From Dictyostelium discoideum (lineage: Eukaryota), in contig CM000152.2 of the NCBI GenBank assembly GCA_000004695.1, forward strand, positions 128,001 through 192,000: a stretch of 64,000 nt of DNA, written 5' to 3'. Every line of letters starts with the position of its first letter. The first letter of the stretch is position 1. Made by a program: the position numbers and the translations under genes. The notes beneath the pieces were generated by a model. The model was not told the DNA's origin. It made no database searches and worked only from the letters and a program-made list of their open reading frames with translations. Shown here in pieces: positions 56,302-57,878 of the stretch.

Positions 56302-57878
56302 ATGACAAAATTACCATTTCAGGTTAAAGATATTTTACTATCAGAATTAGGTAGAAAAGAAATTTCAATTGCAGAAAATGAAATGAAAGGATTAATGGGA
56401 TTACGTAAAAAATTTGGACCATCAAAAATTTTAAAAGGAGCACGTATTGCAGGTTGTTTACATATGACAATTCAAACTGCAGTTTTAATTGAAACGTTGG
56501 TTGAATTGGGAGCACAAGTTCAATGGTCATCAAGTAATTGTTTATCAACACAGCGGCAGTTGCATCCAAAGGTATCGCGGTTTATGCATGGAAAGGTGAA
56601 ACTTTAGAAGAGTATAATTGGTGTATTGAACAAACTTTATATTTTCAAGATGGACAACCAATTAATATGATTTTAGATGAGGGGTCAGATTTAACAAGTT
56701 TAGTAATTGAAAAACATCCAAAAATTCTATCACAACTTAGAGGTATAACTCAAGGATCTTATAATGGAATTAACTATTTATCAAAACTATATAGTCAAAA
56801 GAAATTAAAAATTCCAACTATCAATATCAATGATTCAATTACCAAGAGTAAATTTGATAATTTCTACGGTTGTGGTGAATCATTAATTGATGGTATAAAA
56901 AGTGCGACCAATATAATGATTGCTGGTAAAGTTATAACAATTGCTGGCTATGGATATGTTGGTAAAGGTTGTGCTAAACAGTTAAGTAAATTAGGTGCAC
57001 GTATCCTTATCACAGAAATAGATCCAATTAATGCACTTCAAGCTTCAATGGATGGTCATCAAGTGGTCACAATGGAATATGCTGCACCAATATCAAATAT
57101 TTTCATCACAACAACTGGTTGTCCAAATATTATTACAAGTGATCATTTTAAATTTATGAAAGATGATTCAATCCTATGTAATCTTGGTCATTTAAATACT
57201 GAAATCGATATTGATTGGTTGAATAATAATTCAATTAAAAAAGATATTATTAAAAAGGATTTAGTTGATCGTTATACTTTTATTAGAATTAATAATAATA
57301 ATAATGATAATAATAAACCAAACGATAATAATGATGATGAAAATAATGATAATATTAATAATAATAATAATAATAATAATAATAATAATAATAATAATAA
57401 TAATAATAATAATAATAATAATAATAATAATAATAATAATAATAATAATAATAATAATAATAATAATAATAATAATAATAATAATAATAATAATAATAAT
57501 AATAATAATAGTAATAATGATAAATATCATTTAATGATTTTATCAAAAGGTAATGCAATTAATATTAGTAATAGAGATGGTGGACATCCATCATTTACAA
57601 TGTCAATTTCATTTTGTAATCATGTTTTCTCACAAATTTCACTGTGTGTTGAATATTATTCTTTGAAATATTCACCTGGAATTCATATTTTACAAAGATC
57701 TTTTGATGAAGAAATTGCTCGTTTACATTTAAATCATCTTGGTGGTAAACTAACAGTTTTAACTCCAACCCAAAGTAATTATTTAGGTATTGACAAAATG
57801 GAACTTATAAACCAAGTTTTTATAGATATTAAAGATATTAAAAAAAAAAAAAAAAAAAAAAAAAAATTAATTTTTTAA
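56302..57878 (+). CDS. S-adenosyl-L-homocysteine hydrolase-like paralog. It is frameshifted and has degenerate catalytic motifs, so it is a probable pseudoenzyme or pseudogene. It carries an approximately 50-residue poly-Asn insertion.
   Basis: Two ORF-track ORFs (56302..56607 in frame 1, 56538..57878 in frame 0) overlap by a -1 shift exactly at t56541. Adding one T to the run tgTTTatc restores ...[26 protein letters not shown]. The protein is collinear with SAHH (D. discoideum sahA: ...[41 protein letters not shown]..). Conserved: [47 protein letters not shown] and HPSFTMS. Diverged: ILDDGGD to ILDEGSD; ISEETTTGVHNL to [12 protein letters not shown]; GYGDVGKGCA to [10 protein letters not shown]; EGRLVNLGCA to [10 protein letters not shown]. 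The C-terminal KxxHYRY is replaced by [16 protein letters not shown] poly-Asn insertion encoded by (AAT)n at 57357-57510 is present. Confidence 0.75.
57357..57510 (+). repeat. Coding (AAT)n tract of about 51 units, giving the poly-Asn insertion inside the SAHH-like gene.
   Basis: It is in frame in ORF 56538..57878. The poly-I and poly-Y ORFs on the other frames are artefacts of it. Confidence 0.9.

Follow-up and report, generated by a model that had tools for sequence, protein, structure and literature searches.

The stretch of DNA analysed here, referred to below as the window, comprises 64,000 nucleotides of chromosome 3 of Dictyostelium discoideum AX4 (GCA_000004695.1, contig CM000152.2, positions 128,001 to 192,000). 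At positions 56302-57832 of the window lies a single-exon locus for a divergent paralog of S-adenosylhomocysteine hydrolase (SAHH, or adenosylhomocysteinase, AHCY), the reading frame of which is broken in this strain. An exact-sequence look-up revealed that its first 101 codons are annotated in AX4 as 'hypothetical protein DDB_G0278035' (XP_642082.1), in which the Pfam AdoHcyase match is confined to residues 6-86. What the model represents is the N-terminal portion of the broken gene, cut off at the first out-of-frame stop. The downstream open reading frame (ORF) of 446 codons had no exact match in the protein collection, either from its TTG start or from its first ATG. The features of the locus are collected in Table 1.

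Table 1. Features of the SAHH-like locus (positions in the window; residue numbers are those of human AHCY)
Feature	Position	Strand	Basis or remark
Truncated ORF, 101 codons	56302..56607	+	Ends TAG 56605-56607; exact match to XP_642082.1
N-terminal coding segment, ancestral frame, Met1 to deletion junction	56302..56552	+	Translation; seven-ortholog alignment; residue table
GCLHMTIQ, HxTxQ nucleoside-binding signature (His55, Thr57)	56452-56475	+	N-terminal segment
Frameshift 1: 10-bp deletion junction (AGATCATGCA in intact alleles)	56552..56553	+	DNA alignments to seven orthologs
In-frame 3-bp deletion junction (GCAGCAATT to GCAGTT)	56559..56560	+	DNA alignment; one Ala lost, Ile to Val
Central coding segment, -1 frame relative to start codon	56553..57798	+	Translation, structure search, residue table
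DEGSD	56676-56690	+	Central segment
TQGSYNG	56748-56768	+	Central segment
TKSKFDN (Lys186, Asp190, Asn191)	56841-56861	+	Central segment
GYGYVGKG	56946-56969	+	Central segment
TEIDP (Glu243)	57012-57026	+	Central segment
GHLNTEID (His301)	57186-57209	+	Central segment
Asn/Asp-rich insert, 77 residues, cofactor-binding-domain loop	57288..57518	+	Ortholog alignment
Pure (AAT)51 within the insert	57357-57509	+	
SKGNAINIS	57543-57569	+	Central segment
In-frame 6-bp deletion private to AX4 lineage (RDGGGGHPS to RDGGHPS; GGGG to GG)	~57578..57579	+	Ortholog alignment
GHPSFTMS (His353)	57582-57605	+	Central segment
Frameshift 2: A4 run where each of the seven intact orthologs has A5 (GACAAAAATGGA to GACAAAATGGA)	57795..57798	+	DNA alignments; same in L006
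Ancestral C-terminal tail (Lys426/Tyr430 equivalents) and stop TAA (57830-57832), out of frame	57800..57832	+	
Non-ancestral read-through of shifted frame into 3' A-tract	57833..57878	+	

It is apparent that homology to adenosylhomocysteinase extends over the whole length of the locus, as had been proposed in the sequence-only reading, a preliminary examination of the window made without database searches. The 446-codon ORF matched AHCY structures in the PDB with phmmer E values of 1e–113 to 4e–118. Both Pfam domains, PF05221 and PF00670 (gathering scores of 25 and 27), were detected, with 127 bits in the N-terminal fragment and 178 and 195 bits in the 446-residue ORF; the values for an intact ortholog, P0001, were 350 and 196 bits. 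In the TIGR00936 model, the equivalog for EC 3.13.2.1, the intact ortholog scored 507.2 against a cutoff of 497.6, compared with 664 for the canonical Dictyostelium enzyme, SahA, and 372.7 and 100.8 for the window ORFs. Since the ortholog passes this cutoff, if only narrowly, automated annotation would still label the intact protein an adenosylhomocysteinase. The canonical sahA gene, itself single-exon, was found on another chromosome-sized contig, again as anticipated; a tblastn search of the window with SahA returned only three collinear pieces of the SAHH-like locus, in two frames.

The AlphaFold2 (AF2) model of P0001 has the two Rossmann-type domains and the C-terminal dimerisation tail of the SAHH fold (mean predicted local distance difference test score, pLDDT, 82.3; predicted template-modelling score, pTM, 0.76), and its TM-score to human, rat, mouse and fly AHCY was 0.86-0.95 in a Foldseek search of the PDB. 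Confidence was low solely at an Asn-rich insert (pLDDT <50), at a rebuilt loop ahead of the GHPSF motif (residues 365-374) and at the extreme C-terminus.

The nature of the lesions became apparent from alignments with intact alleles. The first protein search returned a 455-residue protein of another 'D. discoideum' assembly in which the sequence STQDHAAAAIA is unbroken; its locus (L001) is syntenic and single-exon. Five differences separate AX4 from L001, namely deletions of 10, 3, 1 and 6 bp and a longer Asn tract. The 10-bp deletion takes out the codons for Asp86-His87-Ala88 of STQDHAAAAIA, and the 3-bp deletion sits seven bases past it, so that Asp86-His87-Ala plus one further Ala are jointly lost. 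The frame shifts after codon 84, and a premature stop is met at codon 102, a TAG 17 codons past the junction. Beyond the second frameshift, the ancestral Lys/Tyr tail and its TAA are still encoded in the -1 frame.

These alignments modify the preliminary account of the locus in several respects. The frameshift it described is real, but its assignment to a slip in a T3 run at 56539-56543 is ruled out by the seven-ortholog alignment, which places a 10-bp deletion at 56552/56553 instead. A single frameshift had been counted where there are two, and the Lys/Tyr tail had been considered to be replaced by poly-Lys; the 'poly-Lys end' arises where the shifted frame runs on into the 3' poly-A tract, and the tail persists out of frame. 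The argument for loss of the cofactor site that was drawn from the tail does not hold, and nor does one from STQDH, since both elements are intact in the orthologs and are missing here only through two deletions of the AX4 lineage.

It was necessary to consider that the frameshifts might be errors of the old AX4 reference and the gene really intact in that strain. The 1-bp lesion lies within a homopolymer, the region is extremely A/T-rich, and at two upstream intergenic positions, 56076 and 56083, the AX4 window has T where two other data sets (L006 and L004) agree on A; the discrepancy could reflect errors of the reference or variants private to AX4. Against an error stands a separate chromosome-level assembly (L006, GCA_054883475.1), which matches the window at 99.45% identity over 12.1 kb (7 mismatches) and is base-identical through the SAHH-like gene, both lesions and the 51-unit AAT tract included. 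Moreover, the 10-bp and 3-bp deletions are reproduced in two Logan read assemblies (L004 and L005; SRR26869267 and SRR28564541), and a 10-bp deletion is atypical as a base-calling error. Sequencing error was rejected on the basis of this reproduction, and an intact gene in AX4 is regarded as highly improbable. The AX4 allele is a null, that is, a pseudogene carrying disabling mutations that have been verified as real: two frameshifts, with a stop at codon 102, reproduced in independent assemblies.

Rescue of this allele by programmed frameshifting or editing, with production of a full-length protein, is given virtually no credence. Nothing specific speaks for it, apart from the position of the second lesion in a slippery A-run, and two separate +1 corrections would be needed; at the first lesion 10 bp of coding sequence are gone outright, there is no slippery site at 56552, and the N-terminal frame closes 17 codons later.

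The haplotype of L004 and L005 differs from AX4 and L006 by two single-nucleotide polymorphisms, at 56132 and 56496; the null allele therefore occurs in more than one genotype and on two haplotypes or more. Homopolymer or repeat tracts mark the ends of the Logan contigs; these include approximately 210-250 nt upstream of the ATG and look genomic rather than transcript-derived. The paper from which the assemblies come includes a de novo Nanopore and Illumina assembly of the laboratory strain AX2-214 (PMC12745789). L006 is probably that assembly. If so, the lesions would already have been present in the wild isolate NC4, from which AX2 and AX3/AX4 were separately derived. In L006 the automated annotation calls one 638-residue gene (10819-13570, minus strand) that spans both the broken locus and rpb8, presumably bridging the frameshifts by invented introns.

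Orthologous loci were located in five further genomes with fimbrin as the syntenic anchor, in addition to those of L001 and L003. All seven contain an intact, syntenic, single-exon ORF of 455-528 codons with no stop or frameshift. They derive from two tropical D. discoideum isolates (L001 and L003), two 'D. cf. discoideum' isolates that may be cryptic sister species (L007 and L012; termed possible cryptic species in PMC12745789), D. citrinum (L008), D. dimigraforme (L011) and D. firmibasis (L009). The divergence of D. discoideum from D. firmibasis was estimated at 50-100 million years by the authors of the new genomes (PMC12745789). Every ortholog begins with MTKLPFQ, aligned to SahA residues 1-7, and all keep STQDH, DEGSD, [T/A]Q[G/A]S[Y/H]NG, GYG[Y/N] and the KxxxYRY tail, KNGT[Y/F]KPSFYRY. 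The same derived motifs, read from AX4 as degenerated, are fixed across all seven intact orthologs, which represent at least four named species. STQDH (human His87), by itself not a derived motif, is found in most SAHH and in the paralog, as opposed to STQDQ in the canonical SahA of group-4 Dictyostelium (P0004, P0007-P0009 and P0022) and of Acytostelium (P0021).

In every allele the Asn-rich insert occupies an identical place, a surface loop behind the strand that ends in VDRYT. The 51-Asn tract noted at first sight is indeed encoded by a pure AAT repeat in AX4, and it forms part of an insert that measures approximately 16 residues in L001, 35 in L003, 77 in AX4 and 90 in D. citrinum. An insertion of three residues ahead of GHPSF is present in six of the seven intact orthologs and lacking in D. 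firmibasis.

Searches with single sequences and with a paralog-specific profile returned no further members of the family; only the P0001 cluster scored as paralog in the latter, with 994 bits as compared with 654-670 for most canonical SAHH and 790 for a nematode protein of 587 residues (P0256). The orthologs with long poly-Asn tracts (L007, L008, L009, L011 and L012) are called genes without a Pfam hit on record and were returned by neither search, and the searched database apparently lacks proteins with long tracts of low complexity. As the database misses these known orthologs, absence of the family elsewhere is not established. The fimbrin locus of D. purpureum (L010) is not syntenic and contains no SAHH-like sequence, and is uninformative as to the presence of the gene in that species. 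From the sequences at hand, the SAHH-like protein is best read as lineage-restricted.

Selection on the paralog was analysed over 428 aligned codons, with the Asn insert left out, by the method of Nei and Gojobori. The ratio of nonsynonymous to synonymous divergence (dN/dS) was 0.05-0.19 in all 28 pairwise comparisons, with dS reaching 0.50 between D. firmibasis and the others. By this measure, the gene has been under strong purifying selection in the intact lineages. Between AX4 and the intact alleles dN/dS was 0.05-0.16, and the substitutions private to AX4 comprise six synonymous and three nonsynonymous changes, where neutrality predicts 1:3.8 (binomial P=0.004); the AX4 allele does not, then, display the pattern of neutral substitution that follows inactivation. 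On these counts the inactivation is recent, since the gene is intact in relatives and the AX4-private changes are still synonymous-biased, and constraint held for most of the AX4 branch too. The sequence-only reading had offered a decaying duplicate as one explanation, and this is correct in that the gene is dead in AX4, but the values just given argue against long decay. The situation resembles a polymorphic unitary pseudogene, in which disabling indels likewise occur in one lineage with almost no decay, while conspecific or sibling isolates are intact, as seen here in a handful of genomes.

A related possibility is that the family as a whole descends from a sahA duplicate in slow decay, under relaxed constraint, the changes of motif being degeneration. 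In its favour, the paralog protein changes 2.6-12 times faster than SahA over the same species pairs, replacements have occurred at 22% of the positions that SAHH otherwise keeps invariant throughout, and the gene has been lost in one lineage. However, seven full-length ORFs persist without a stop or frameshift across dS of up to 0.5, dN/dS is low throughout, and the derived motifs themselves are kept between species. Decay of the family is accordingly considered very unlikely. Given the low dN/dS and the motifs shared by the orthologs, the altered motifs represent a selected state and not decay.

To describe the active site, residues were tabulated in human AHCY numbering, the human sequence having been confirmed against 1LI4 and that of AHCYL1 against 3MTG. 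Kept in all alleles are His55, Thr57 and the Gln at position 59 (HxTxQ); Lys186, Asp190, Asn191 and Cys195; Gly220, Gly222, Val224, Gly225 and Glu243; and Asn248, Thr274-276, His301, Asn346, His353, Met358 and Phe362. Lys426 and Tyr430 are kept as well, the Lys/Tyr tail being out of frame in the window allele. Replaced in all alleles are Cys79 (by Ser), Asp131 (Glu), Glu155 (Gln), Glu156 (Gly; Ala in D. citrinum), Thr157 (Ser), Thr158 (Tyr; His in D. citrinum), Thr159 (Asn), Asp223 (Tyr or Asn), Phe302 (Leu), Asp303 (Asn), Leu344 (Ala), Leu347 (Ile) and Gly348 (Ser or Asn). Of 228 alignment columns without variation among the canonical SAHH of a bacterium, animals and Dictyostelia, 50 carry a replacement in every ortholog. 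Within the catalytic ligand set (His55, Asp131, Glu156, Thr157, Lys186, Asp190 and His301), Asp131, Glu156 and Thr157 are changed in all eight alleles. Among residues of the site for nicotinamide adenine dinucleotide (NAD), the glycines, Val224, Glu243, Asn191, Asn346, Lys426 and Tyr430 are kept in the intact orthologs, and Thr158, Thr159 and Asp223 are changed.

The changes of motif first described from the AX4 sequence, DDGGD to DEGSD, SEETTTG to TQGSYNG (of equal length, with no insertion), GYGDVGKG to GYGYVGKG and AEGRLVNLG to SKGNAINIS, were all observed as stated. His55 lies in GCLHMT, not in STQDH, and is kept. Alteration of catalytic residues was borne out for Asp131 and Glu156 and not for His55, Lys186, Asp190, His301 or Lys426/Tyr430, which are retained. 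The suggestion of a non-catalytic protein akin to AHCYL holds as an analogy for the intact orthologs, in which Glu156, Thr158, Thr159 and Asp223 are replaced, and not for the window allele, which is dead.

In SAHH, the equivalents of Glu156 and Asp190 hold the substrate 2'-OH, that of Thr157 contacts the substrate 3'-OH and the 3'-OH of the nicotinamide ribose, that of Thr159 binds the 2'-OH of the nicotinamide ribose, and those of Asp131 and His55 bind the 5'-OH (PMC7765604); the role of K426/Y430 is covered in PMC12955632. Both the remodelling of the predicted active site and the conservation of the family are evident from the alignments. With the Glu156 carboxylate, Thr158 and Thr159 lost, Asp131 lengthened and Asp223 replaced, the intact protein would not be expected to perform the NAD-dependent oxidation, elimination and hydration on S-adenosylhomocysteine (SAH), and loss of the Glu155-Thr159 loop makes the canonical redox-elimination cycle unlikely. 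Most likely, then, it is no longer an SAH-hydrolysing enzyme. With its fold, NAD core, HxTxQ signature and tail retained, it would be expected to retain both oligomerisation and the capacity to bind a dinucleotide, an adenine nucleoside or both, and its Lys426/Tyr430 tail would reach the NAD site of the partner subunit. Its most likely role is that of a non-catalytic SAHH-like subunit or of a ligand sensor, exercised either through homo-oligomers or mixed oligomers with SahA, or through binding of adenosine or SAH.

With SahA and human AHCY (1LI4) the paralog shares its fold and domain order, and sahA is likewise single-exon. It differs from them in the replacement of the Glu155-Thr159 loop, Asp131, Asp223, Phe302, Asp303, Leu344, Leu347 and Gly348, in its variable poly-Asn insert, in the three residues inserted ahead of GHPSF in 6/7 orthologs, and in the disruption of the gene in the AX4 lineage. 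AHCYL1/IRBIT and AHCYL2 (3MTG and 3GVP) resemble it in being SAHH-fold proteins that coexist with a canonical enzyme and have changed positions of substrate or cofactor contact; they and the paralog alike retain the C-terminal Lys/Tyr tail. AHCYL proteins are reported to lack catalytic activity, and modulation of AHCY through heteromultimerisation has been proposed for them (PMC4926864, PMC12955632). Their IRBIT domain, which is Ser/Thr-rich and contains a PEST sequence, precedes the AHCY-like domain (PMC12955632, PMC4926864). The Dictyostelium paralog lacks this N-terminal IRBIT/PEST extension and starts level with SahA. In addition, AHCYL keeps Glu155/Glu156 and loses His353, whereas the opposite is true of the paralog.

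Similarity values lead in the same direction. Identity of the paralog is approximately 62-64% to SahA, 56-57% to animal AHCY and 40-42% to AHCYL, and in the structure search AHCY entries scored 381-399 bits, as compared with 257 for 3MTG and 248 for 3GVP. With no IRBIT domain, and closer to AHCY than to AHCYL by bits and identity, the paralog is on these grounds an analogue of AHCYL of independent origin, and not a member of that family. Ten positions were noted for parallel change (157, 158, 167, 223, 273, 280, 302, 303, 348 and 360). Seven replacements are identical in the paralog and human AHCYL1, among them T157S, D303N, G348S, N360I and D280N, and both proteins further depart from canonical SAHH at positions 158, 223 and 302. 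The number of changed positions shared with AHCYL1 was 21, against 14.9 expected (P=0.027); this modest excess over chance should be taken as a lead to convergence, not as a finding.

Taken together, the data make it likely, in our judgement, that the AX4 locus is a recent null of a conserved SAHH paralog and that the intact protein is a non-catalytic subunit or ligand sensor. The mechanism, that of an oligomeric regulator or a nucleoside sensor, is one that we infer by analogy. Several observations weigh against this interpretation. His55, Lys186, Asp190 and His301 survive and may allow residual or altered catalysis; the Ser157 hydroxyl and the Glu131 charge are retained, which may also leave room for catalysis; and the change of Asp223 to Tyr/Asn in the GxGxxG loop, with that of Thr158 to Tyr, could weaken the NAD-binding step. 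The hetero-oligomer of AHCY and AHCYL1, on which the analogy draws, is itself a matter of dispute (PMC12955632). DDB_G0278035 was mentioned in no paper in the literature searched. Finally, in a neighbour-joining tree the paralog clade lay outside all dictyostelid SahA (99.5% bootstrap) and grouped weakly with Dictyostelia (58%), although this placement is likely affected by long-branch attraction.

An alternative is that the intact alleles encode an active enzyme. This would be a second SAH hydrolase in which the pocket has been reshaped, or else a hydrolase or oxidoreductase acting on a different nucleoside thioether or nucleoside. As a speculative instance, replacement of Glu156 by Gly would open space at the ribose 2' position. 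Asn191, His353, Cys195, the GxGxxG glycines, Glu243 and Lys426/Tyr430 are retained along with the residues named above, the TIGR00936 cutoff is still passed, and archaea have SAHH homologues of altered substrate preference (PMC10978960; PDB 7r3a, 'S-inosyl-L-homocysteine hydrolase'). On the other hand, the Glu155-Glu156-Thr157-Thr158-Thr159 loop that touches the substrate and nicotinamide riboses (PMC7765604) is now Gln-Gly/Ala-Ser-Tyr/His-Asn, and the hinge loop around Asn346-His353 has been rebuilt, with the three-residue insertion in six of the seven intact orthologs and low AF2 confidence over residues 365-374. An active enzyme is considered rather unlikely, and a non-catalytic subunit or sensor is preferred.

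As to the origin of the duplication, the paralogs formed a clade with 100% support in the neighbour-joining tree, on a stem of 0.34 substitutions per site. Derived states private to group-4 SahA occur at four informative sites, and at each of them (4/4) the paralog shows the ancestral one, which argues against a very recent duplication. From these comparisons we conclude that the duplication probably predates the core group-4 radiation.

SAHH is among the most conserved enzymes, and to our knowledge catalytically dead SAHH paralogs have so far been described in animals (AHCYL1/2, with the IRBIT domain). The gene of the present clade, for which no paper on a Dictyostelium SAHH paralog was found in the literature, is a previously undescribed and probably non-catalytic one; it would add an independent second example, from Amoebozoa, that purifying selection has maintained from a time preceding the split of D. 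discoideum and D. firmibasis. A broader proposal is offered only tentatively, namely that the D. discoideum group independently evolved an SAHH-derived pseudoenzyme or ligand sensor, which regulates SahA or senses adenosine or SAH, and that NC4-derived laboratory strains are natural nulls for it. Were this true, a layer of methylation-cycle or nucleoside signalling would exist in wild relatives that has never been seen in the laboratory. Dictyostelium SAHH binds cyclic AMP, which is a possible ligand if the paralog is a sensor. Growth and development under laboratory conditions do not depend on the gene, because the standard laboratory strain lacks it. The reference strain is thus a natural knock-out, and isolates that pair with AX2 in mating tests hold an intact allele; CRISPR has been reported for non-model dictyostelids (PMC13046832). 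The misleading AX4 model is corrected as well, DDB_G0278035 being a 101-residue piece of a broken gene. More generally, 'degenerate motifs plus a frameshift' in a single reference genome may mask a gene that is functional in relatives.

The local gene order is a GNAT acetyltransferase (minus strand, ~55263-55872), the SAHH-like gene, rpb8 (from 58227) and the fimbrin gene fimA (minus strand, ~59650-61814). The DNA upstream of the SAHH-like ATG is rich in A/T homopolymers and non-coding. A DnaJ protein encoded at 40687-42015 is an exact match to XP_002649165.1 of AX4, and a tRNA scan of the window found no tRNA genes. The G+C content of the window is approximately 20%, with long homopolymers and Asn-codon repeats; it is raised, relative to this average, in the 2-kb bins 52001-54000 (0.33) and 60001-62000 (0.31). 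The latter bin covers fimbrin, and the former is the syntenic place of a called gene of approximately 500 residues, without a domain hit, in relatives. The largest ORF of the window runs uninterrupted for 2,924 codons, at 3798-12572 on the plus strand.

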